20,000 bases of DNA from an uncultured virus (IMG/VR IMGVR_UViG_3300042480_000533) (IMGVR_UViG_3300042480_000533); one strand, 5' to 3'. Positions 7,830-18,835 are shown, numbered from the stretch's first letter. Notes: generated from the sequence alone by a model not told the origin. Translations and numbers: made by a program.

Positions 7830-8048
7830 ATGCTTAGAGATTTCAATAACAAAACCGCACCAACGCCGTCTGGTCTGGACCCGTTCGACTACTACTGGGG
7901 CGGGCGCACGGACGCCAACCTGGAGACGGGAGAGTGGAAGGAGATCTGGCACAGCTCCTTCCGAAACCCATCGAAGGATCACGACATTGTGATTACCTTC
8001 GGTGCAGACGGCAAAATCATTTGTAAAGAAAGGCGCGACGGATTCTGA
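7830..8048 (+). CDS. Small hypothetical early protein (72 aa, MLRDFNNK...)
   Basis: ATG downstream of repeat copy 2 and a purine-rich RBS; codon usage matches the module. Confidence 0.65.
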   Translation: MLRDFNNKTAPTPSGLDPFDYYWGGRTDANLETGEWKEIWHSSFRNPSKDHDIVITFGADGKIICKERRDGF

Positions 8049-8060
8049 TCTGACCGACAA

Positions 8061-8164
8061 CAAACCCTCCATGCTCTTTCAAGGGAGAGCATGGGGATGT
8101 TTGCTGTTGCAAACAACCCTGGCTTGTGGGGATCACAAGCAATCAAGTCTTGGCAATGCCAAGA
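8061..8164 (+). promoter_or_regulatory. Structured leader of the RNAP gene (consecutive hairpins; possible RNase III site or terminator)
   Basis: CCATGCTCTTTC-AAG-GGAGAGCATGG long stem; TGTTTGC/GCAAACA; GCTTGTG/CACAAGC (8122-8140); TCTTGGC-AAT-GCCAAGA (8148-8164). Confidence 0.5.
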
Positions 8165-8178
8165 GAAAGGTAGATTCC

Positions 8179-9978
8179 ATGAATATCATGGATCTCATGG
8201 GCGAAAGCCTTAAGGTGGTATTCGGTGGGCGTTCGATGTCCTTCGCTACTGCGGCGATGAACGCGATGAAGATCGCGTCAGCCGTGGAAACGGAGGCAAA
8301 CGAGCCACCGAACAAGACCTGGGAGCGCAGCAAGATGCTGCTCCAGGAACTGATCTCGGCGGGGGTGCTTCACACCACTCAGATCAGTAACCCCACCACG
8401 GGGTTGGCACAGACCTACTGTGCCTTCACGGAAGGCTTCGCACTTCGGGAGTTCCGCAGAGAGCCGTGCCTCAAGGAAGAGGATCTCCTTACCACCTTTC
8501 GGACGGCGGGTGTTCTCAGCTACCTCGGTAGCTGTGGGATCCGCATCAACCCCGAGGTTGTGGCGTTCATCCGCCGCAACAAGGATCGGTACGAGAAGAC
8601 CGATTCCATGGGACGGAGGGTCACACCCCCGTCCCTGTTCCTCAAGGACGCACAGTCCTTGGAGAACGAGGAGGATGACCGCCCGATCTACATGGACTAC
8701 AAGAGTCCTGACGGTCGGCGCTTCTATGCACTTCACAATCGGTTTACCCACCAAGGTGCCGAATGGATGCGTGGCTCTGTGGATGCGGCTGAGGAGAAGC
8801 CGATCAAGCCCGAGGACATTGACGATGCGTTCAACATCGTCAGTGAAGAGACTGGCGTGACCCGTACCAACTGGCGCGCCATCCTCAAGGACGAGTCCCT
8901 GTGCTTCACGGGCAAGCACTTGGGCCTCAAGACCAGCAAGCCCGCAGCGGTGTACCGTGCTGCTCTCTTCTTCAAAGAAATCCTGGAGAAGGGACGGTCT
9001 GCGTACATCATCCAGCAGGACCAGACTTGCTCAGGGTTCCAGATCATCGCCATGCTGCTGGCATGTCGAAACCTGATGACCTTGACGAACCTGAACGGAG
9101 GCACGAAGCAGGACTTCTACACTGCTTCGTCGGATCTGGCAAGGGGCATGTATTCGGGTGAGTTCTTCCCCGAGTGCTTGTTCATCCGCAGCGGTGCCAA
9201 GTACTTTGTGCTTCGTATCGGCTACGGTGCGGCCACATCCTCGCTGGCACGGGGTCTCATCCTTACTAACCCGCAGGAGAGTCCCGTCCAGTACCTGAGC
9301 GAGGAGGGCGCATTCATTCCTGGAGTCCTCGACAAGCTCCCGATCCAGGACCTCAACGAGGACTACTACGAGATGTGGAAGTCCCTTGGGTGGAAGCGAG
9401 CGGTGGAGGTCAGTCAGCAGACCTCCAAGGCATACTACAATGCCATCATGCAGATCAGCCCCAAGCTGAGGTGGTTCCTGTCCAGTATGAAGCTGGCGAA
9501 CAAGGTCGCTCTTGACCGTGGCGAGTTCTTGTCGTGGGAGCCAATCCTAGGTGAGGTCAAGAAGAATGTCCGCTACACGGCGGACTGGAAGGCCAAGCCC
9601 CGCAAGGTGCAGTTCTTCGACAAGAACGGGAAGGAGTTCTATGTGAACATCCATCCCTTCATGAAGGATGCGGCGGCAAGCGCGGCTCCTCCGTGCTATG
9701 TCCACAGCTTTGATGGTGCAACCATCATGCTGGTGGTGGAGATGTGCAGGGAAATCGGTATCCCCATATACCCGATCCACGACTCCACCGGTACCACAGT
9801 GGACAACTTCAAGAAGGTGAAGCAGATGTGGCTGGATGCCACGCGGCACATCTTCTGCTACGGTCCCTCTCCGTTCTGGGATGTTGTCAAGCGGTACAAC
9901 CTCCCAGTTCCTGCATCTCTCTTTCCCAATGGGCAACCAGACCCCATCGATGTCTGGGGCGAGCACTTTATGGGTTGA
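8179..9978 (+). CDS. Single-subunit (T7/T3-family) DNA-dependent RNA polymerase, compact 599 aa
   Basis: Motif A QDQTCSGFQ (Asp at 9019; T7 DGSCSGIQH). Motif B RSGAKYFVLRIGYG (Rx3Kx7YG, 9187). APPCYVHSFDG (T7 APNFVHSQDG). Motif C IHDSTGT (Asp at 9781). DGRRFY...FTHQG (T7 DWRGRVY...FNPQG). GAAAGGT RBS before ATG 8179. Confidence 0.93.
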   Translation: MNIMDLMGESLKVVFGGRSMSFATAAMNAMKIASAVETEANEPPNKTWERSKMLLQELISAGVLHTTQISNPTTGLAQTYCAFTEGFALREFRREPCLKEEDLLTTFRTAGVLSYLGSCGIRINPEVVAFIRRNKDRYEKTDSMGRRVTPPSLFLKDAQSLENEEDDRPIYMDYKSPDGRRFYALHNRFTHQGAEWMRGSVDAAEEKPIKPEDIDDAFNIVSEETGVTRTNWRAILKDESLCFTGKHLGLKTSKPAAVYRAALFFKEILEKGRSAYIIQQDQTCSGFQIIAMLLACRNLMTLTNLNGGTKQDFYTASSDLARGMYSGEFFPECLFIRSGAKYFVLRIGYGAATSSLARGLILTNPQESPVQYLSEEGAFIPGVLDKLPIQDLNEDYYEMWKSLGWKRAVEVSQQTSKAYYNAIMQISPKLRWFLSSMKLANKVALDRGEFLSWEPILGEVKKNVRYTADWKAKPRKVQFFDKNGKEFYVNIHPFMKDAAASAAPPCYVHSFDGATIMLVVEMCREIGIPIYPIHDSTGTTVDNFKKVKQMWLDATRHIFCYGPSPFWDVVKRYNLPVPASLFPNGQPDPIDVWGEHFMG

Positions 9979-10004
9979 TTGAATCAACCAGAAGGGACAG
10001 AACA

Positions 10005-10493
10005 ATGAAGGTTATCGTTAAGTCTATCGGTAAGGGTGTCAAAGACCTCAACGCTGAGGTCGGGCACATCCCAGGTACCCAGTCGGGTACCACCCAGGTC
10101 TTCGTCCGCGAAGGTGACAAGATCAGGGTTCTCATCGACCTCGCTAACAAGAGCACCAAGTCTGCCTTCTGGCAGAAGAAGTTGGTGCAGAACGAGAACG
10201 GGTTGTTCGTTCTCCTCAGCAACGAGACCCCCGCTCAGGTCTTTGGCCATGAGCTGGTCATGGAGAAGAAGGACACCCAGTACCGTCTGGGTGTCAAGGT
10301 GACCGACAAGGAGGGCACCAAGCTCGGTGTCTTCTACGGTCCCATCGCCAACAGCCCCGAAGAGGCCAAGACTCTGTTCTGGTCCACATGGAACATGAAG
10401 GAACTCAATCCCTTTGTTCCCGAGGATCGCAAGACGGTGCATCTCCGCCTCACCGTAATGGGGTACCGCACTCAGGAGGTGGCCTCCTTCTGA
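10005..10493 (+). CDS. Hypothetical protein (162 aa) directly downstream of the RNAP
   Basis: AGGGA RBS, ATG 10005, strong C/G3 codon bias, beta-strand-like Lys/Val-rich sequence. Confidence 0.8.
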   Translation: MKVIVKSIGKGVKDLNAEVGHIPGTQSGTTQVFVREGDKIRVLIDLANKSTKSAFWQKKLVQNENGLFVLLSNETPAQVFGHELVMEKKDTQYRLGVKVTDKEGTKLGVFYGPIANSPEEAKTLFWSTWNMKELNPFVPEDRKTVHLRLTVMGYRTQEVASF

Positions 10494-10513: not shown

Positions 10514-10850
10514 AACCCCTTCGGGGTTTCTTGTGCCCCCTTTGGGGTACATCTGCCCCCTTCGGGGCCTTGGCTATAGGCCCTTCGGGAGTCATTCGAC
10601 CCTTCGGGACCTTGGCTGACCCTTCGGTGTGTGTGCCTGTGGGGGTCACTATCATCATTGGGTAGTCCCCTATGGGATATTTGCATTATTGCGTATACGC
10701 CCCTAGGGGGCTTTAGGCCCTTCGGGACCCCTACGGGTACCCTTCGGGCGTTAGAACGCCCTATAGGCGATCCTAGGGGCATTAGAATGGATGTGGTAAT
10801 CTCTTTGGGGAAGTGTTTCCCTTGGGGGTTACCTGTTTTTCCCCTTGGGA
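10514..10850. repeat. Array of short CCC-N3/4-GGG palindromic mini-hairpins
   Basis: CCTTCGG at 10518, 10559, 10582, 10601, 10621, 10719 and 10741, with a CCTTTGG variant at ~10539 (about 20-nt period), plus CCCTATGGG, CCCTAGGGG, CCCTACGGG, CCCTATAGG and CCCTTGGG variants. Confidence 0.75.
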
Positions 10851-11043
10851 CTGCCATAACATGTCATGTGACTGCCATTTCATGCCATATTGGCACACCC
10901 ACGCCCCAACGCACGCGAGATCCCAACACCAACGCGCCTTCGGCGTGCGGGCAACTCTAAGTTGCCCTTGGTGAGAAAATGTCAGGGTGATTGTCCACAG
11001 CGCGTATACTGTGACAATGACCCCCATTGCAAAAGGACAGAGA

Positions 11044-11304
11044 ATGGCAGATATCAATGAAGCAGCCGCAAAGTTGGCGGCATTCGGAGTGACCGTGACC
11101 ACCCAGCCCGTGAAGCGGGAGACGCGGGTGGTCGATCCCCTGAACAGGGCCATCGGTCTCTTGGCTGCGGCCAAGAACCCCAACCTCTCGGAAGAGAGCC
11201 GAGCAGCCGCCATGGCCCGCCTTGGCACTTTGCTCGACAGCCAGCCTGGGCTGGCATCCAGCGTGTCGGCTGTGGCTGAGAAGCAAGCCAACAACGGTCG
11301 ATGA
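11044..11304 (+). CDS. Hypothetical protein (86 aa, MADINEAAAK...)
   Basis: AAAGGA RBS, Ala-rich helical product, preceded by a long hairpin at 10985-11023. Confidence 0.7.
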   Translation: MADINEAAAKLAAFGVTVTTQPVKRETRVVDPLNRAIGLLAAAKNPNLSEESRAAAMARLGTLLDSQPGLASSVSAVAEKQANNGR

Positions 11305-11308
11305 AGCA

Positions 11309-11559
11309 GGACCTGAGCATGTCATAAAACTGCTCAACTTTACTAGGACGGGTTAAGCCTAGTGCGTTCACATGGTAACATGTGGGGTCCCGATTGCTAC
11401 AACCGTGGCAACTGTAGACTTGAAACACCTACAGCAAATATTGCCAGTTTCAACGGTAATGGGCTAACAAACATGGGATACTTAAACCCACATTCCATGT
11501 TTGGCAGGGTTATATAGGGTTACATGGGGCCATCTAGTGGAAACGCTAGGTGGTCTTTT
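11309..11559 (+). ncRNA. Putative structured non-coding RNA element A
   Basis: No credible ORF. Pseudoknot 11310-11336; hairpins 11341-11364, 11367-11386 (GUAA loop), 11412-11434 and 11440-11460 with complementary loops, 11468-11503; ends in a terminator. Confidence 0.5.
11528..11559 (+). terminator. Intrinsic terminator
   Basis: GGCCATCTAGTG-GAAA-CGCTAGGTGGTC followed by TTTT. Confidence 0.7.
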
Positions 11560-11571
11560 ACAGGAGGTGTC

Positions 11572-11691
11572 ATGAACGACGAAGTCAAAAAGCTGTTGGA
11601 TCAGCGAGAGATCTTGATCGACCAGATCAACATCCTACAAGCCGAGCTGTTAAAGCACGGTATCCCACTCCCGCCTGTACCAGAGGTTTAG
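11572..11691 (+). CDS. Small coiled-coil-like peptide (39 aa, MNDEVKKLLDQREILIDQINILQAELLKHGIPLPPVPEV)
   Basis: Strong AGGAGGTG RBS; below the ORF-track cutoff; translated by hand. Confidence 0.6.
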   Translation: MNDEVKKLLDQREILIDQINILQAELLKHGIPLPPVPEV

Positions 11692-11700
11692 TTCTCTGAC

Positions 11701-12120
11701 GGGCATTCTCCCCGCAAGGGGAAAGCCCACATAGGGCACCGCAAGCAACCTAGCCTATAGGCGGTTTATAAATAGTAGGACACCCTTTTGTTGTGGGTTT
11801 GGGAATAATCACCCCAAGCCAACCGAGCCTGAATATGCTCTGGTTATCAAAACTATTCTGGACTAAACGCAGCCATTGTCTGCAAAGACATAGTTTGGGC
11901 TGTATAGAACTTTGTTGTGGATAAGCCCCAACAAATACGCCGTCAAATTAGCGGTACACTCTAAGCCTGCACTAGAGGGTGATACTTCTCCTAGGTTGCA
12001 GCAGGAGCGGATATGGTTGCTGGCAAACCATATCTTGTTGAAAGGAGGCCACCGTGTTACTCCGAGCGGGCAATTCGGAGTTCCTTATAAGATGTACTCT
12101 GGTGTACAGAGTGCGCCTTT
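11701..12120 (+). ncRNA. Putative large structured non-coding RNA element B (~420 nt)
   Basis: Long-range pair GCAACCTAG (11745-11753)/CTAGGTTGC (11991-11999), GCAA-tetraloop hairpins, pseudoknot 11821-11858 and at least six further hairpins. Confidence 0.55.
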
Positions 12121-12135
12121 ACAGGAGAATAAACA

Positions 12136-12471
12136 ATGAAGCATCAAGTAAACTTGCTTGGCAACAGCGTGAAGCGACCAAGGATTCTGCTTGGTGATGG
12201 ATGTAGCCTGAGCATTCAGGCAAGTGAATACCATTACTGTACTCCTCGTTCATCCTTTGCAACCTTTTACACCGCATGGGAGATTGGGTTTCCTAGTAAG
12301 GCGATCCCAGAGATCCTGGAGTGGGCAGAGGATCCGGAGGATCCAACCGAAACAGTCTACGGGTATGTTCCTGTAGATGTGATTCTTGATGTGATCAAGG
12401 CCCGAGGTGGTACCGTACAGCAAGAAAAAACATATGAGCAAGCAACGCAAAATCAATCGTCGGAAGCGTAA
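12136..12471 (+). CDS. Conserved-looking phage hypothetical protein (SIQASEYHYCTPR...EIGFPS...TVYGYVP)
   Basis: AGGAG RBS, 111 aa; the motif pattern resembles a common phage hypothetical family (recall only). Confidence 0.8.
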   Translation: MKHQVNLLGNSVKRPRILLGDGCSLSIQASEYHYCTPRSSFATFYTAWEIGFPSKAIPEILEWAEDPEDPTETVYGYVPVDVILDVIKARGGTVQQEKTYEQATQNQSSEA

Positions 12472-12565
12472 GACTGGATATGTTAACCTAGTTCCTGCGT
12501 CTCCATTTACCCGTACATTCAACTCTTTCAAGGAATTCGCAGATGCAATGGTACATCGCAGTTGA
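12434..12565 (+). CDS. Small basic peptide (43 aa, MSKQRKINRRKRKTG...)
   Basis: Fills the gap between neighbours; its TGA overlaps the ATG of the next gene (TGATG). Confidence 0.45.
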   Translation: MSKQRKINRRKRKTGYVNLVPASPFTRTFNSFKEFADAMVHRS

Positions 12566-13017
12566 TGGGACAGTCTGGCCAACAGCCAAGGAAGCAAGGG
12601 AGGTCATGGATGGCCGTTGACCCTACCCTGTTCAACGAGGTGGTTACCAGAAAGACCGCCCTTCGGGAAAAGATGATTGGTGATGTCATGGTAAGTGGCA
12701 AGCCTAGGTGGGCTGCGGCTATGCTGGTTGACCAGCGGATGCCTACGACAACCAACCGAAAGCAACTTGCAGAGGTCGGTATTGATGTGACTGGGCCAGA
12801 CCAGATCCAGGAAATCCTGGATACCATGGCTATGTTTGGTGTTTATTTCATTAACACCAAGGGAATAACCAAGGAAGAATTCTGGGACATCCTCCAACCC
12901 ATTCTGGACGAGGAGATCACAGATCTCCCACCTAACAACGACATGTGTGAGTTTATTGAACTTCAGGGACAAGAGGGCAATAACGAGTTTTTCAATGTCC
13001 CAGTAAAGGAAATGTGA
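12565..13017 (+). CDS. Hypothetical protein (~150 aa, acidic C-terminus)
   Basis: ORF track; start uncertain (12565 or ATG at 12607 behind GGGAGG). Confidence 0.7.
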   Translation: MGQSGQQPRKQGRSWMAVDPTLFNEVVTRKTALREKMIGDVMVSGKPRWAAAMLVDQRMPTTTNRKQLAEVGIDVTGPDQIQEILDTMAMFGVYFINTKGITKEEFWDILQPILDEEITDLPPNNDMCEFIELQGQEGNNEFFNVPVKEM

Positions 13018-13407: not shown

Positions 13408-13650
13408 ATGACTTTTAACCATAGACTAAATGTAACTCTAGAACAGGAGACCTATGATGTCCTAGTTCTTGTAGAAGGTGTTGTGATTCCTGAACCTTAT
13501 GGTTCTGTGGACAGATACAATCCAGTTGTTCTTTCCTTTAAGATCCTTAACCAAGACAATCCTGTACTGTATGATTTAATCAACACTATGTACATGTCTC
13601 AGCTGGAAGAAGCTGTAAGCAACAACTTTATTGGAGTAAATAATGAATAA
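13408..13650 (+). CDS. Hypothetical protein (80 aa)
   Basis: ORF track; overlaps the start of the next gene. Confidence 0.6.
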   Translation: MTFNHRLNVTLEQETYDVLVLVEGVVIPEPYGSVDRYNPVVLSFKILNQDNPVLYDLINTMYMSQLEEAVSNNFIGVNNE

Positions 13651-14017
13651 GAAAATTGCAGACATGTGGTGTGCAGCCCTACGGAGTGGGGAGTACACCC
13701 AAGGCAGGGGATCTCTTTGCACTGTGAATGACAACGGCAAGAAGTTTTGTTGCTTGGGTGTCCTTTGCGAGTTGTACAAGCAGCGCGACCCATCAATGGA
13801 TGTACGCTACTCATGGGCCACTGCCGATAGCAAATTTGTTTTATACAACTCCTATTCATGTAACCTTCCGCCAGAAGTTTGTCTATGGAGCGGTGTTAAA
13901 ACCCAGCTGGGATTCCGATGCAAAAATGGAAAAAGCCTTGTTCACCTAAATGATTCAAGTTATTTTTCTTTTGATCAGATCGCCAATGTAATCGAAGAAG
14001 AATGGGAGACACTGTGA
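13643..14017 (+). CDS. CCLGVL-family paralog 1
   Basis: WCAALRSGEYTQG...FCCLGVLCELY...LND...SFDQIANVIE; GGAG RBS. Confidence 0.85.
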   Translation: MNKKIADMWCAALRSGEYTQGRGSLCTVNDNGKKFCCLGVLCELYKQRDPSMDVRYSWATADSKFVLYNSYSCNLPPEVCLWSGVKTQLGFRCKNGKSLVHLNDSSYFSFDQIANVIEEEWETL

Positions 14018-14361
14018 ACCAAGAAATTAAGAATCGCTGGATTGACGCCCTCCGTAGTGGTGACTATGAGCAAGGTAAGAATTACCTGTGTAATAGGAAC
14101 GGTAGTGGAGGCAGAGAGTGGTGTTGCCTCGGTGTTCTCACCGACTTGTACCAGAAAGAAACAAACAACAAGCTTATTGCTACTGGTGACAATCCATGTA
14201 CTTTTGGTGCAGTTGTGTATGGTAATTCATGTCAGTTTCTTTCATCAGAAGTTCATGAGTGGGCTGGTCTTACCATCAAGCAGGTTGATGTGTGCATTAA
14301 ACTTAATGACACATATAGTGTAGGCTTTCAAGGCATTGCCGCTGTGGTTGATACTTGGTAG
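14014..14361 (+). CDS. CCLGVL-family paralog 2
   Basis: GTG start overlapping the previous TGA; WIDALRSGDYEQG...WCCLGVLTDLY...LND. Confidence 0.85.
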   Translation: MNQEIKNRWIDALRSGDYEQGKNYLCNRNGSGGREWCCLGVLTDLYQKETNNKLIATGDNPCTFGAVVYGNSCQFLSSEVHEWAGLTIKQVDVCIKLNDTYSVGFQGIAAVVDTW

Positions 14362-14380
14362 CAACCAATGGAGACAACAA

Positions 14381-14725
14381 ATGAAGAAAGAACTTAAACA
14401 AAAGTGGATTGATGCTCTCCGTAGTAAAGACTATCGACAGACAACCAACTGTCTTCGCCACAGAAGTGGGTATTGTTGTCTTGGTGTCCTTTGTGACATC
14501 GTGGATAACACCAAATGGTGTTCAAATGGACAGCAAGGATCAATGTACTACTTTGATTCAGGCTATGAAATTGCGTTTCCAGAAGAGTCTTGGTTGAACA
14601 CGATTGGTCTGCCAAAGGATAATGCTAATGCTTTGGCTAGAATGAACGATGAGGGCTTAGAATCATTTGAAAACATCGCGGATTGGATCGAAGAGAATGT
14701 GTTCGTAACTAGTGAACAACCTTGA
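14381..14725 (+). CDS. CCLGVL-family paralog 3
   Basis: GGAG RBS; WIDALRSKDYRQ...YCCLGVLCDI...MND...SFENIADWIE. Confidence 0.85.
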   Translation: MKKELKQKWIDALRSKDYRQTTNCLRHRSGYCCLGVLCDIVDNTKWCSNGQQGSMYYFDSGYEIAFPEESWLNTIGLPKDNANALARMNDEGLESFENIADWIEENVFVTSEQP

Positions 14726-14741
14726 TGTAATTGACACCTAG

Positions 14742-14814
14742 GCTTCGGTAACTCAGTTGGTAGAGTATCGGACTTTTAATCCGTTAGTCGCGGGTTCGAG
14801 TCCCGCCCGAAGCA
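14742..14814 (+). tRNA. trnK: tRNA-Lys, anticodon UUU (CCA not encoded)
   Basis: Acceptor GCTTCGG/CCGAAGC+A; D arm ACTC-AGTTGGTA-GAGT; anticodon loop CT-TTT-AA (TTT at 14775-14777); T arm GCGGG-TTCGAGT-CCCGC. Confidence 0.95.
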
Positions 14815-14828
14815 TTACAGGAATTCTT

Positions 14829-15101
14829 ATGTATAGACACAAAGCTAGAAAAGAATCATTTCAAGAAGTTAGGGAAACATGCCCACATGTTGATGCTGCC
14901 TTGGTAAGTGTTGCAGAAACAATCAAAGAACAACTTGATGTGTCTTTGCAGATGGCAGAAAGAAACATTAAGAAACAAACAGAAGCTCTTCGTGATGCTT
15001 TGATTGAGGCTTTTGATCGAGCACTCACAGCGGAAGACCAAGTAGCGGAGCTAGAAAACAGAGTTGCAGAACTTGAATCACAACTGGAGAATCATGCCTG
15101 A
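14829..15101 (+). CDS. Hypothetical coiled-coil protein (90 aa)
   Basis: ATG after the tRNA with an AGGA RBS; heptad-like C-terminus (VAELENRVAELESQLE). Confidence 0.75.
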   Translation: MYRHKARKESFQEVRETCPHVDAALVSVAETIKEQLDVSLQMAERNIKKQTEALRDALIEAFDRALTAEDQVAELENRVAELESQLENHA

Positions 15102-15297
15102 CATAATGAAACGATACCTTGTGTTTGGGTGGGAGTTTCACGAACAACGTGGTGGATTCCATGACTTTCTACGAGATTTCTCTTCCCAAGACGAAGCATA
15201 CCTTTATGCAAAAGCCACTAAGGAATCGCATAAGATAGATGAGTATCAAATTTACGATACCTATAGTGGACAAATCCTAACCCCAGGAAGATATTAA
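15094..15297 (+). CDS. Hypothetical protein (67 aa)
   Basis: GGAGA RBS; overlaps the previous stop. Confidence 0.7.
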   Translation: MPDIMKRYLVFGWEFHEQRGGFHDFLRDFSSQDEAYLYAKATKESHKIDEYQIYDTYSGQILTPGRY

Positions 15298-15298
15298 C

Positions 15299-15553
15299 AT
15301 GACCCCTAAGTACCCAGACATTACCGTTAACCTTGACAATGTGGATGGAAATGCCTTTGCTGTAATGGGTGTTGTCACCCGTGCATTAAGGAAGCATGGT
15401 GTTTCCAAGGAAGAGATTGATGCATACCGTAAGGAATCAATGAGCGGAGATTACGATAATCTCCTGCAGACTATTCCTAAGTGGGTCAATGTCGAGGGGG
15501 GATACCCCGACGACGACGACAATGACTATGATGATCGACAGTACAACTTCTAA
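15299..15553 (+). CDS. Widespread phage hypothetical protein (DGNAFAxMG...SGDYDNLL)
   Basis: Recognisable DGNAF/SGDY motif pair, acidic tail, 84 aa. Confidence 0.8.
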   Translation: MTPKYPDITVNLDNVDGNAFAVMGVVTRALRKHGVSKEEIDAYRKESMSGDYDNLLQTIPKWVNVEGGYPDDDDNDYDDRQYNF

Positions 15554-15566
15554 AGGATACTGATCA

Positions 15567-15953
15567 ATGAAAAAGAAGATTGCAGATATGTGGGTTAATG
15601 CCCTTCGTTCTGATGAATACAAACAGGGTTATCGTACGCTTTGTCGTGTTAACTATGACAACAACTCTAAGACCTATTGTTGTCTTGGTGTTCTTTGCGA
15701 TTTGTATCAGAAGAATCAAACAAAGAACAAAAAGAAAAAGCTTAGCGTGAAACCCGAAACAACTGGTTCTACCGTTATTGCTTTCGATAGCAATAGTGGT
15801 GTACTCCCCCAGGCAGTACAGAATTGGGCTGGAATGTCTTCTTTCAATGGACACATCCCAGGTGGTGGTCCTAATCTCGTTAAAATGAACGATAATGGAA
15901 AGACATTCATTGAGATTTCCGACCAGATCGAAAAGCATTACAAGGAGCTGTGA
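15567..15953 (+). CDS. CCLGVL-family paralog 4
   Basis: WVNALRSDEYKQG...YCCLGVLCDLY...LPQAVQNWAG...MNDNGKTFIEISDQIE. Confidence 0.85.
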   Translation: MKKKIADMWVNALRSDEYKQGYRTLCRVNYDNNSKTYCCLGVLCDLYQKNQTKNKKKKLSVKPETTGSTVIAFDSNSGVLPQAVQNWAGMSSFNGHIPGGGPNLVKMNDNGKTFIEISDQIEKHYKEL

Positions 15954-15954
15954 T

Positions 15955-16485
15955 ATGAATAAGAAGCTGACCAAGGCAGAGATGCGTGTTGCAATCGCAA
16001 AGGATGTGATTGCACAGATCAAGGCAAAGAAGTACAATCCAGTGCAGGGTTGTTGGGTTATCTGGGTAGATGGCCCAGACTATGATGATTGGCTTGTGGA
16101 TAATTCAGCAAATTGTAGGGTTGATGTGCAGAAGTACACCAAGAGCATCAAGAAGTGTAATGTCTGTGCTCTTGGTTCCCTGTTCGTGAGTGCCGTAAAC
16201 AAGTACAACAATGTCTACGGAACCTATATGACCGTTTCAACCGATCAAGTCTTTGATACTTCAGAAACAAACAATCGCAGTCCACTGCTTAGGTACTTTA
16301 CCATCAATCAGATGCGGTTAATTGAGTATACCTTTGAGGGTGGAATGGGGGCTGTTTATTTCGATGACCTTAAGCAAATGAAAGGCAAGGCTGATGCATT
16401 CTACTCTCAGTATCCTGATGACAAGGATCGTCTCCTGGCAATCATGAAGAACATCATCAAGAACAACGGAACATTCAAGCCATGA
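15955..16485 (+). CDS. Hypothetical protein (176 aa) with CNVCALG motif
   Basis: AAGGAG RBS, ATG 15955. Confidence 0.8.
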   Translation: MNKKLTKAEMRVAIAKDVIAQIKAKKYNPVQGCWVIWVDGPDYDDWLVDNSANCRVDVQKYTKSIKKCNVCALGSLFVSAVNKYNNVYGTYMTVSTDQVFDTSETNNRSPLLRYFTINQMRLIEYTFEGGMGAVYFDDLKQMKGKADAFYSQYPDDKDRLLAIMKNIIKNNGTFKP

Positions 16486-16748
16486 TCACCAAGGTTGCTC
16501 AGTCTTATATCTATTACGAAGATAAACTCTTCTACATATCCACCATTAACCGTCAATCGTCTGCAATGATTACTGATCCTCCTTGGTACACAGAAACTTT
16601 TGTATGGGAGCTTGATCCTAATAACCCAACTAATGTTGGTGATCTTGTTCATGAATCTAGTTCAAACTTTATGAACGATATCACCAGTCACTTTGAAACT
16701 TGTATGCAATTCTTTGAGAATGGGAAAGCAAACAAAGAAGATGAGTGA
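16482..16748 (+). CDS. Hypothetical protein (88 aa)
   Basis: ATGA overlap with the previous gene. Confidence 0.7.
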   Translation: MITKVAQSYIYYEDKLFYISTINRQSSAMITDPPWYTETFVWELDPNNPTNVGDLVHESSSNFMNDITSHFETCMQFFENGKANKEDE

Positions 16749-16908
16749 ACCTAAGTTAATTTTTGATGGCGATTACTGTTCTGTTTGGTCAGACAATACA
16801 ATGACCTTCAGTGATGGCGTTGGGTTTGTTGGAACCACAGACCAGAAAGAAACCCATCAATTGTATCTTGCCTTAAAGTTTTTATTTGAAAAGGAATCAC
16901 ACCAATGA
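16741..16908 (+). CDS. Hypothetical protein (55 aa, MSEPKLIF...)
   Basis: Tightly packed between neighbours with overlapping start/stop codons. Confidence 0.6.
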   Translation: MSEPKLIFDGDYCSVWSDNTMTFSDGVGFVGTTDQKETHQLYLALKFLFEKESHQ

Positions 16909-17255
16909 ATCTATCTGTAAATACGCATGGTAATGTTACGGTTTGGGAAACTAATCTTCATACTAATTGGTCTTGGACATTCACCCCAGAAGAAAGCCTA
17001 CGGGTTTTCAATCATCTCGCCAAGTACCACCAGCCAAAGCCAACCATCAGTGCTGAGCTAAATTACCTCAAGGAGTTTGTCACTAAGGTTGTCAAGACAG
17101 AAGTTTTTGAAGATGGATCTGTTAACTACATGATTAGATCAATCGCAAGCAACGATAACTATGTTGAATATCTTGAACTTTCTAAGGAAGCAACCAAGTA
17201 CATCGAATCCATTGCCCGTGACAACCTTATCAAGAAGATTGAATCCCATGCCTGA
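16905..17255 (+). CDS. Hypothetical protein (116 aa)
   Basis: AAGGA RBS, ATGA overlap. Confidence 0.7.
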   Translation: MNLSVNTHGNVTVWETNLHTNWSWTFTPEESLRVFNHLAKYHQPKPTISAELNYLKEFVTKVVKTEVFEDGSVNYMIRSIASNDNYVEYLELSKEATKYIESIARDNLIKKIESHA

Positions 17256-17469
17256 ACAGAAGATCAATGTTAATATCGGTGGGGGCCTCTTGACTTTTCT
17301 TGGTGTGCTGCTTATCATCCTCAAGCTTGCCGAAGTAATCAATTGGTCTTGGTGGATCGTACTTATTCCGCTGTACCCACTAGTTATTTTTCTTGTGATT
17401 CTCTTTGGCCTGTTGTTCTTTGCGGGTTGTGTTGCGGTGTTTTCCAAGGTAAGGGGGGTGAAGCCGTGA
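17248..17469 (+). CDS. Small two-TM membrane protein (LKLxxVIxWSWWxVLxP type)
   Basis: Hydrophobic 73 aa with ILKLAEVINWSWWIVLIPLY, a motif common in phage membrane proteins. Confidence 0.8.
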   Translation: MPEQKINVNIGGGLLTFLGVLLIILKLAEVINWSWWIVLIPLYPLVIFLVILFGLLFFAGCVAVFSKVRGVKP

Positions 17470-17573
17470 GCAATGACTTCGGAACTGGAATCATCTGCGG
17501 TATGTTCATAGCCGTTATCTTTTCATTGGCTGGGGTTGGACTTGCCGTATTGTTTCCAAAAAAAGCAAGGTGA
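17466..17573 (+). CDS. Single-TM peptide (35 aa)
   Basis: GTG start behind a GGGGGTG RBS; hydrophobic core and basic tail (FPKKAR). Confidence 0.55.
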   Translation: MSNDFGTGIICGMFIAVIFSLAGVGLAVLFPKKAR

Positions 17574-17586
17574 AGGGGGTAAATCC

Positions 17587-17871
17587 GTGAGCAATGTGGA
17601 TGAGCACATTTACTTTCTCCGCTTTTTGTTCGACGAAACAAGCGAAAGCGGTGAACGATGTGACGAGATCGCTGACATTTTGAGCCGCTTCCGCGCCGAA
17701 CTCGAAAAGGCAAACGCCAAACTCAACGAGGTGCAACTCAAATGGCAGCGGTTGTATGGCGAGATCGATTGCCGTATAGAGCATGGTGCAAATAGCAATG
17801 GACATCTTGAGGCAATCCTTAAGATGATGCAGAAAATAGAAACAAACATTAAGGAGACAGACAATGACTAA
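17587..17871 (+). CDS. Hypothetical coiled-coil protein (94 aa)
   Basis: GTG start behind a GGGGGT RBS. Confidence 0.65.
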   Translation: MSNVDEHIYFLRFLFDETSESGERCDEIADILSRFRAELEKANAKLNEVQLKWQRLYGEIDCRIEHGANSNGHLEAILKMMQKIETNIKETDND

Positions 17872-18130
17872 GACCGCAGAACAGATCGTCAACCTCAGTA
17901 GCTACTATACCAATCACACCTATTTCGGCAAAGGTTGGCAGGATCGAATGAGTGGATACGAGTGCTTTAATCCGCACATGGTTGAAGACCACGAGATTGC
18001 ACATCTTCCGCACTATGCTCGCATTGCCCTTCAGGATTATGCCTGTGGGTGGAACATGGCAAGTGCAAAGATCACCGAACGCCGCAATGCAACAGCGGCT
18101 GCTGCTACCTATCTCAACGACTATGTCTAA
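17864..18130 (+). CDS. Hypothetical protein (88 aa)
   Basis: AAGGAG RBS. Confidence 0.75.
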   Translation: MTKTAEQIVNLSSYYTNHTYFGKGWQDRMSGYECFNPHMVEDHEIAHLPHYARIALQDYACGWNMASAKITERRNATAAAATYLNDYV

Positions 18131-18140
18131 GGAGTAACAC

Positions 18141-18503
18141 ATGGACAAGAAGATTATGAAGAAGTGGGTCAAGGCTTTGCGATTTGGCAAGTATTGCAAA
18201 ACTAGGGAGGTTCTTTGCAAGGTTGCCGAGAATGGTAACAAGAGTTGGTGTTGCCTCGGTGTTCTCACCGACCTGTACAACAAGGAACATAAGCAAGATC
18301 CGATTGAAATTGATGCTCTTGATGCAGAACTTTCATACGAGGTTAAAGAGTGGTCTGGTATGGGATCTTGTGATGGGAATCTTCCGTATGGCTATGGTAA
18401 TCAATCAATTACATCCCTCGCTGAACTCAACGATTGCAAGAAAAGCAAGCGTTCTTTCAAACGTATGGCAGACATTATCGAAAAGAATTGGAAGGAACTT
18501 TAA
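18141..18503 (+). CDS. CCLGVL-family paralog 5
   Basis: TAAGGAG RBS; WVKALRFGKY...WCCLGVLTDLY...LAELND...SFKRMADIIE. Confidence 0.85.
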   Translation: MDKKIMKKWVKALRFGKYCKTREVLCKVAENGNKSWCCLGVLTDLYNKEHKQDPIEIDALDAELSYEVKEWSGMGSCDGNLPYGYGNQSITSLAELNDCKKSKRSFKRMADIIEKNWKEL

Positions 18504-18835
18504 TGAATAAAAATGTAAAGCACAAGTGGGTCAAGGCACTTCGTAGTGGTGATTACAAACAAGGCAAGGGATGTCTTCTTAACCTTAAAGAAGGAGAAGC
18601 AAATTACTGTTGTCTTGGTGTTCTTGTAAATCTTTTTGAAAAAGAGCACCATCTTCAGTTTAATAAACAACTAAGTGGGTGGGGAGAAAATCACGGTTAT
18701 AAGCTTCCGCTTCTTGTTTCTGAGTGGTCTGGTGTTTCTAATTCACAGGAGTCTGTACTGATGGAGCTTAACGATAGAGAAATTCCCTTTGATACAATCG
18801 CTTGTGTCATTGATCAGTTTCAAGAGGGGTATTAA
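18503..18835 (+). CDS. CCLGVL-family paralog 6
   Basis: TAATG overlap; WVKALRSGDYKQG...YCCLGVLVNL...ELND...FDTIA. Confidence 0.85.
   Translation: MNKNVKHKWVKALRSGDYKQGKGCLLNLKEGEANYCCLGVLVNLFEKEHHLQFNKQLSGWGENHGYKLPLLVSEWSGVSNSQESVLMELNDREIPFDTIACVIDQFQEGY

Follow-up and report, generated by a model that had tools for sequence, protein, structure and literature searches.

The preQ1-I riboswitch (RF00522) is a small H-type pseudoknot in which an A-rich strand follows the stem and the loop pairs with the tail. Frameshift pseudoknots of the luteovirus type (BWYV, PLRV) are H-type folds of ~28 nt whose A-rich strand lies in the groove of the stem (PMC10321173). In plant, fungal and insect RNA viruses, the coremin motif (xrRNA-C, together with a Watson-Crick variant) has been described (PMC6546385, PMC10520033, PMC10321173) and is reported to stall Xrn1, to block scanning ribosomes and to promote frameshifting (PMC10520033, PMC10321173). 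Its loop follows the rule YGAD or YGNNAD, with G in the second position (PMC10520033). Among self-cleaving RNAs, the activity of the pistol ribozyme has been reported to be strongly lowered when its P1 helix is disrupted (PMC4604425). We found no text that links coremin to phages, the sole one naming both concerning BNYVV, and likewise no report of nuclease-resistant RNAs in phages. Nor did our literature search return a description of a pseudoknot that phages carry close to tRNAs or ribozymes; the motif described below may be among the 10,006 candidates of PMC10690425.

Here, we describe such a motif, which occurs twice in a 20,000-nt stretch of DNA from an uncultured virus (IMGVR_UViG_3300042480_000533), hereafter the window. 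The window belongs to a phage, as judged from a T7-type RNA polymerase domain (ORF 8002-9978; PF00940 and phrog_414), from a series of small ORFs starting at 12054, six of which fall into phrog_18067, along with a tRNA-Lys, and from the orientation of its long ORFs, all of which lie on the + strand. The polymerase ORF is preceded by an ORF of 2455 aa. Both copies of the motif are located in the longest gene-poor stretch of the window (11305-12053), where the sole ORF encodes 39 aa (11573-11691). A distant-similarity search with 10900-12500 gave no DNA match among GenBank phages, and a promoter and terminator scan of 10900-12300 detected nothing on the + strand. The features of the region are compiled in Table 1.

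Table 1. Positions of the two pseudoknot copies, the pistol-like core and neighboring features in the window.
Feature	Position	Strand	Description
Upstream ORF, 105 aa	10987-11304	+	TGA stop at 11302-11304, 5 nt before copy 1; weak Pfam match
Copy 1	11310-11335	+	GAC-CUGAGCAU-GUC-AUAAAAC-UGCUC, 26 nt, read directly from the sequence
Copy 1, P1	11310-11312 with 11321-11323	+	GAC/GUC, 3 pairs
Copy 1, loop	11313-11320	+	CUGAGCAU
Copy 1, linker	11324-11330	+	AUAAAAC
Copy 1, tail	11331-11335	+	UGCUC, pairs with loop GAGCA 11315-11319
Pistol-ribozyme-like core without canonical P1	11342-11392	+	Rfam RF02679 match and complementarity read from the sequence
Candidate pseudoknot strand	11342-11347	+	ACUAGG, complementary to CCUAGU of the core
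Pistol-like P2	11349-11352 with 11389-11392	+	CGGG/CCCG
Pistol-like core letters	11353-11367	+	UUAAG, CCUAGU, GCGU; core UUAAGCCUAGUGCGU; Rfam alignment UUAAGCC..GCGU
Pistol-like P3	11368-11385	+	7 pairs, GUAA loop
Predicted cleavage junction	between G11387 and U11388	+	GGU
Conserved non-coding stretch	11393-11560	+	follows the pistol-like core; ends in a hairpin and then UCUUUU (11529-11560)
Copy 2	11821-11858	+	AACCGAGC-CUGAAUAU-GCUCUGGUU-AUCAAAAC-UAUUC, read directly from the sequence
Copy 2, P1		+	AACCGAGC/GCUCUGGUU, long stem of 8 pairs with a single bulged U
Copy 2, loop, linker and tail	within 11821-11858	+	loop CUGAAUAU, linker AUCAAAAC, tail UAUUC pairing with loop GAAUA
tRNA-Lys	14742-14814		

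An initial annotation of the window had proposed that the same H-type pseudoknot occurs here twice, and both stretches read as it had written them, save that it ended copy 1 at 11336, one base too far. The copies share the features of the family described below: a C-G-closed loop CUGAnnAU, a linker ending in AAAAC and a complementary tail UnnUC, so the common 8-nt loop and AAAAC linker noted at that time are indeed present in both. The covariation claimed for the loop-tail helix was likewise recovered. Two pairs differ between GAGCA/UGCUC and GAAUA/UAUUC, a G-C becoming A-U and a C-G becoming U-A from copy 1 to copy 2, with both sides altered each time.

To define the family, we searched viral and bacterial sequences with patterns of different stringency. 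A loose pattern was found in at least 119 viral stretches; a minority of the 120 matches analyzed fit the fold, and these share CUGAGCAU...AAAACUGCUC between complementary stems that differ from one another. The strict pattern CTGAGCATN{3,16}TNAAAACTGCTC occurs in at least 123 viral stretches, with 105 distinct sequences among the matches listed. The resulting motif of ~28 nt consists of a C-G-closed stem of 4 pairs, an 8-nt loop, an A-rich linker and a 5-nt tail whose pairing partners are loop positions 3-7, with the consensus A-N-N-C / CUGAnnAU / G-N-N-U / (U)AAAAC / UnnUC. A logo of 102 fixed-length instances reads A-N-N-C, CUGAGCAU, G-N-N-U, (U)AAAAC, UGCUC, A, where many columns, as in the alignment described below, were preset by the search patterns and are invariant by construction. 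The same logo contains no promoter-like conserved letters upstream of the motif.

The motif is carried by cultured phages as diverse as Paracoccus phage ParMal1, cyanophages S-RIM4 and S-EIVl, mycobacteriophage Labelle, Vibrio phage D456, Geobacillus phage GR1 and the crAss-like phage cr8_1. A related pattern yielded 109 bacterial stretches in 185,579 species genomes from many phyla, including Saccharibacteria, Aminicenantes, Thermodesulfobacteriota, Firmicutes, Actinobacteria and Cyanobacteria. Its neighbors in these genomes comprise integrase, resolvase, Mu-like gpT, DUF932, DUF3768 and Cro-type genes, along with some ordinary genes. The motif forms a large family in phages and bacterial mobile elements. 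It is not private to the phage represented by the window.

To follow base pairing in the loop-tail helix, we performed two variant searches in which the middle of this helix was left free and the commonest letters were excluded. The first returned 36 stretches, 27 of them distinct, with the helix types GAACA/UGUUC, GAAUA/UAUUC, GACCA/UGGUC, GAAAA/UUUUC and GAUGA/UUAUC; in 24 of the 27, both free pairs were complementary and at least 3 of the 4 stem pairs could form. Among the matches listed for the second search, 65 were distinct and 63 of these had a complementary loop-tail helix (GAGUA with UGCUC, 38, or with UACUC, 18; GAGAA with UUCUC, 7), leaving 2 mismatched. Complementarity is thus preserved in homologs, whose loss of pairing would have spoken against a selected fold according to the initial annotation.

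Every distinct 4-pair instance from the searches, misfits included and none from the window, was then combined in an alignment of 101 rows. In this alignment, 94.2% of the pairing cells were complementary compared with 77.8% in shuffles, none of 500 shuffles scoring as high, and sliding the partners against each other left only 30-40% of the cells paired. All four pairs that the search patterns had left free show changes on both sides, while the other five pairs were preset by the patterns and are uninformative on covariation. At one of these fixed positions, Geobacillus phage GR1 carries a compensated change (AAGCA/UGCUU). G-U cells (35) far outnumber A-C cells (5), which places the fold on the sense strand. 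The motif is a selected H-type RNA pseudoknot, transcribed within the sense-strand message and intercistronic, and the selected RNA fold first proposed from the two copies is borne out by covariation of both helices across 101 distinct instances.

A covariance model built from this alignment (R1) was used in a search of 33,875 bases on both strands that took in the window. It recognized copy 1 with 36.2 bits (E 2.5e-10, model positions 1-33), whereas copy 2 gave a partial match of 7.7 bits (model positions 5-18), because its stem has 8 pairs and R1 was built from 4-pair forms. No third copy was found in the window. The joint pattern CCTGANNATN{3,14}ATNAAAACT matched the window once, at copy 2, compared with 0.00 matches expected from 200 shuffles. 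Copy 2 is also conserved at 9659-9701 of a close relative (L001) with two substitutions, one removing the outermost P1 pair and the other turning a G-C into a G-U, and its GAAUA/UAUUC helix is found again in 5 distinct viral instances elsewhere. Within the family, copy 1 is a typical member and copy 2 a long-stem variant with a recurrent helix type. Minimum-energy folding of the copy 1 region was better than that of shuffles (z -3.45) and less so for the copy 2 region (z -1.97); these scores concern non-knotted folding, as such folds cannot represent pseudoknots. Applied to four complete phage records, R1 found one strong copy in each, with up to three extra weak matches in S-EIVl.

No Rfam family matched either copy at E values up to 10 within 10800-12600, and the family is absent from RNA catalogs. 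Like coremin, the motif has a 4-pair hairpin, often GUC/GAC, a loop that begins with a pyrimidine and ends in A-U, and a spacer, close to the UUAAAC of coremin, followed by letters that pair with the loop. Most copies read (U)UAAAAC in this spacer and some UUAAAC, the exact coremin form being found in S-EIVl and the Vibrio phage copies, while copy 1 has 3 stem pairs and AUAAAAC. The motif differs from coremin in its 8-nt loop CUGAnnAU, whose G is third and which fails the published loop rule, in a second helix of 5 Watson-Crick pairs where coremin has 3 or non-canonical contacts, and in its bacterial hosts. The second hairpin that coremin requires directly after the spacer is not enriched behind the motif either (a stable hairpin starts ≤4 nt downstream at 41/211 loci compared with 48/211 and 55/211 control windows).

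The luteovirus-type knots resemble the motif in size and layout, and the last decoded codon is similarly spaced, at 5-8 nt. Here, however, the knot follows a stop codon rather than a slippery heptamer, no extended frame runs through it, and direct reading of the sequence before either copy revealed no such heptamer. With preQ1-I, to which the initial annotation had likened the fold, the motif shares only the topology: its conserved letters are different, its tail does not cover a ribosome site, and no preQ1-I match was obtained at E values up to 10 in 10800-12600 or up to 5 in 11 motif loci. The likeness in topology holds, while membership in that family is not supported.

The motif also resembles the 5' domain of the pistol ribozyme. 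There, too, a C-G-closed stem of 4 pairs prefers the letters A-N-U-C / G-A-N-U, the 3' part of an 8-nt loop is paired to a strand further downstream, and the linker after the stem is of the AUAAA type. In the motif, the tail follows directly after the linker, and P2, P3, the conserved core and the G-U junction are missing; at all loci examined other than copy 1, it stands without a pistol. At copy 1, a pistol-like core begins 7 nt downstream. The Rfam pistol model (RF02679) aligns to 11348-11392 with its positions 23-68 of 68 (29.3 bits, E 0.0062), below the cut-off of 34.5, and P2, P3, the conserved core letters and the two-letter G-U junction are all present in this alignment. A canonical P1 is absent, since ACUAGG lies outside any hairpin loop and copy 1 uses its loop for pairing with its own tail.

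Close relatives of the phage document what has changed. L001, with 92% protein identity in the polymerase, carries a full-length pistol at the same place (38.9 bits), as do three more metagenomic relatives (L534, 40.1 bits; L618, 40.1 bits; L644, 45.1 bits). Alignment of the window with L001 shows similarity up to 11300 and again from 11353; in between, the window has copy 1 and AACUUUACUAGGA, and L001 has ACUCCACUAGGGGAGUAUAAAGUAG. Both the AUAAA linker and the 3' half of P1 are consequently missing from the core of the window, which has the pseudoknot upstream instead, so that copy 1 stands exactly where four relatives carry the pistol P1. Given the strong loss of pistol activity upon P1 disruption, the core would be either inactive or dependent on something else. 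Of 105 distinct matches to the word of the pistol core, none is preceded by the motif. Three loci that looked like P1-less pistols by eye (L585, L624 and L579) gave no pistol match at E values up to 1. Relatives with a full pistol, with a core in which the motif replaces P1, or with neither provide a natural experiment. Downstream of the core, 11393-11560 is nearly identical in L001, and the small ORF 11573-11691 is not conserved there.

At 61 of 76 distinct viral loci, the 60 nt upstream of the motif contain the end of an ORF with at least 60 codons, compared with 30 of 228 shifted controls. At 29 of the 76 loci, the distance from stop codon to loop is 9-12 nt, i.e. 5-8 nt before the stem; distances of 0-8 nt do not occur, and the only smaller value is -4, observed twice. 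Copy 1 fits this spacing with its 5 nt, and copy 2 does not, as the nearest ORF stop (11691) is 130 nt away. On the downstream side, a tRNA on the same strand starts 4-14 nt after the tail at 26 of 112 loci, and an SD-like site with a start codon follows within 40 nt at 38 of 112. The proteins encoded on either side group into 33 clusters upstream and 48 downstream, among which no common gene function was found; the largest upstream cluster is DUF932 (36/104).

We tentatively favor, at somewhat less than an even chance, a role of the motif as a self-contained mechanical barrier or insulator at the borders of RNA segments. This reading is based on the host-independent conservation, the spacing from stop codons, the structured or independent RNA that often lies downstream and the coremin precedent; the lack of a gene function common to the neighborhoods also speaks for it. 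The knot would work alone as a mechanically stable barrier and would be placed as near behind the stop codon as a terminating ribosome permits. A host-specific partner appears dispensable because of the breadth of carriers, which span at least 123 viral stretches, 109 bacterial stretches and varied cultured phages. Once folded, the knot may hinder 5'-to-3' movers such as a scanning or read-through ribosome, RNase J or scanning RNase E, and a downstream tRNA, ribozyme, structured RNA or cistron could fold or survive apart from the upstream message. Copy 1 would then mark the border between the ORF 10987-11304 and the pistol-like core with its conserved structured RNA.

Several observations run against a barrier function. 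The coremin-type downstream hairpin is not enriched, copy 2 has no adjacent ORF stop, and most cultured phages checked carry one strong copy, which is odd for a general boundary device. A plain hairpin could also serve as a barrier, and the letters of loop and linker, being nearly invariant, may instead point to a binding pocket or to catalysis. To our knowledge, Vibrio and Pseudomonas lack RNase J although their phages have the motif, and therefore no single nuclease explains it. An extended form of the barrier hypothesis, which we regard as unlikely, would make the motif a bacterial-virus counterpart of coremin that halts ribosomes as well as 5'-3' nucleases whatever the host, cutting messages into independently stable pieces; in the pistol 5' domain, this module would have become part of an enzyme, and copy 1 would have replaced the deleted P1 and may keep the ribozyme working. 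The letters are nearly constant in phages of cyanobacteria, actinobacteria, firmicutes, proteobacteria and Bacteroidota as well as in mobile elements of many other phyla, and any interaction partner must therefore be universal or internal to the RNA. The role of the motif would bear on how phages punctuate polycistronic RNA, on the reasons for the clustering of tRNAs and self-cleaving ribozymes at the same borders, and on whether eukaryotic RNA viruses and phages have small barrier knots in common.

Most of the probability beside a barrier function falls to ribozyme-related, ligand-binding, protein-binding and recombination explanations. An involvement in ribozyme biology, either as a tiny self-cleaving RNA or as an accessory scaffold replacing the pistol P1 as copy 1 would, draws on the mirrored pistol 5' domain (stem letters, 8-nt loop, AUAAA-type linker), on copy 1 standing exactly at the P1 site of four relatives, and on a hatchet ribozyme 600 nt from the motif at locus L145. 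Mu-like gpT and DUF932 genes are also among the neighbors, and Mu-like phage genes have been reported as ribozyme-associated (PMC10085705). We nonetheless consider such an involvement distinctly improbable: the motif has neither the pistol core letters nor a cleavage junction, no distinct pistol-core-word match has it upstream (0/105), and the core of the window itself may be dead after the loss of P1. Within 1-kb flanks, moreover, the hatchet is confined to 1 of 40 scanned loci, the others containing tRNAs only. At 28 nt, the motif is well below the size of every self-cleaving class known to us. Still less probable is a ligand-sensing aptamer of preQ1-I-like architecture, in which the invariant letters of loop and linker would build a pocket where the two helices meet. 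The topology is that of small pseudoknot riboswitches, and the unpaired C, U, U and AAAAC are (near-)invariant, in logo columns fixed by the search patterns, while stem letters vary freely. The identity of the downstream tRNAs is suggestive as well, 24 of 26 being tRNA-Asp(GUC), which carries queuosine. Yet these cases mostly have a DUF932 gene upstream and may, because most share it, represent one lineage; no queuosine synthesis or transport genes are found among the named neighbor clusters, and no gene function common to the neighborhoods was found. Neither preQ1 nor any other riboswitch matched at E values up to 10, and the variable sequences after the tail contain no consistent terminator or sequestered ribosome site.

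Binding of a phage or host protein, such as a translational repressor, a nuclease or an antitoxin-like partner, would account for the G-C and A-U pairs kept at fixed places in the second helix and for the fixed loop letters, although these columns are partly pattern-fixed. We give such an operator little credence, as no protein family is common to the neighborhoods, the hosts are spread across many phyla, and the copies are not in tandem, unlike type III antitoxin RNAs, which are tandem repeats. The borders at which the motif occurs point in yet another direction, namely to a mark or promoter of gene-cassette exchange, i.e. recombination or a mobile mini-element at module borders, for which RNA folding would be secondary. 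Up to the gp85 stop codon, Labelle is 99% identical to Madruga, and the two are unrelated from the motif onward, where ~480 nt of Labelle, including a different tRNA-Gln, replace ~120 nt of Madruga. The motif is sporadic among close relatives, Labelle being its only carrier among Patience-like phages. The 185-nt stretch after the motif in Labelle has no Rfam match and folds no better than shuffles. Likewise, related phage variants part from the window exactly at 11300, as do RNA-library contigs from lake samples, two of which continue with the pistol P1 of a relative, while one joins 11300 to 11514 and skips 213 nt. Even so, there is only a slim chance that exchange is the primary function: compensatory changes in two helices and the excess of G-U over A-C indicate selection on the folded sense strand, the motif invariably shares the strand of the genes at loci with reliable annotation, and 28 nt are short for homologous exchange.

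Four further candidates were tried and rejected. A promoter is at odds with the spacing of the conserved halves, which varies with stem length, and with the mostly single strong copy per cultured phage. An attP site or tRNA fragment does not agree with the covariation of both helices or with the presence of the motif in T4-like and T7-like families, which are lytic. A type III antitoxin mimic was dismissed as the 109 bacterial stretches contain no tandem arrays and paired copies are ~300-480 nt apart. A mimic of the tRNA acceptor was discarded in view of the letters after the tail, where A (71) is followed by mixed letters and ACC occurs in a minority only.

The stretch of the window described here is present in lake-water DNA runs and partly in four freshwater RNA-library runs from one study. 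Contigs from the RNA runs extend over 11150-11300, with small pieces at other places; they stem from variant phages, contain neither copy and show no ends, and are therefore silent on expression or processing. In the window itself, copy 2 is located within a long structured leader ahead of the early genes.

Downstream of the pistol core, the window and its close relative phage L001 share a non-coding stretch in near-identical form; beyond it the window continues with a small ORF that has a good AGGAGG site, where L001 carries unrelated sequence instead. At its 3' end, the window stretch terminates in a hairpin followed by UCUUUU, and it may therefore represent a small RNA freed by the pistol ribozyme. 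One contig from the RNA-library run X12 links position 11300 of the window to 11514 through CTA; in this natural variant, copy 1 of the pseudoknot motif and the pistol core are missing, as is the greater part of the conserved RNA.

The pistol core of the window has good P2 and P3 helices and core letters, with the canonical P1 and linker absent. At the corresponding position, L001 and the metagenome relatives L534, L618 and L644 carry full-length pistols, all four of which score above the Rfam cut-off; the poorly pairing helix in the L001 and L534 pistols is P2. By eye, three metagenome loci (L585, L624, L579) resemble the window in that ACUAGG, one base and a 4-nt P2 strand precede a pistol core, and they carry a hairpin farther upstream. 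None of the three gave a pistol match against Rfam at E-values up to 1.

Several hairpins downstream of motif copy 2 have kept their position between the window and L001 while their letters changed; UUUGUUGUGG..CCAACAAA of the window, for instance, has its counterpart in UCUACAGG..CCUUGUAGA of L001. Compared with the window, L001 contains ~160 additional bases directly 3' of copy 2. Farther into the early region, a word that recurs in the form GTACAGAGTGCGCCTTTACAGGAGA lies upstream of early-ORF start codons and may serve as a phage promoter or leader signal. Six ORFs scattered through this region matched phrog_18067 (PHROG of unknown function) and form a paralogous family.

Coordinates of features in the window and in related or motif-bearing loci
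Feature	Window	L001	Other locus
Pistol (core in window, full-length in L001)	11342-11392	9169-9230	
Conserved non-coding stretch	11393-11560	9231-9399	
Small ORF	11573-11691		
Hairpins 3' of copy 2	11866-12053	9860-10050	
Repeated word	12095-12135	10085-10125, 10377-10413	
phrog_18067 ORFs	13643-18835		
Hatchet ribozyme			L145 273-410
Labelle stretch with 11-pair helix			L528 1478-1650

Among the matches listed for viral loci (e.g., L137, L140, L155, L160 and L165), 24 of the 26 tRNAs starting 4-14 nt after the motif were tRNA-Asp(GUC), and a DUF932 gene precedes most of these cases. This association may reflect either a single phage lineage or a genuine link. In one viral contig (L145), a hatchet ribozyme scoring 77.7 bits is located 5' of the motif, at a distance of 600 nt. 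The segment of mycobacteriophage Labelle (L528) that separates the motif from a tRNA-Gln is 185 nt long and has no Rfam match; an 11-pair helix (GGAAGCGGGAA / UUCCCGCUUCC) closes it, and it also contains an unannotated small ORF.
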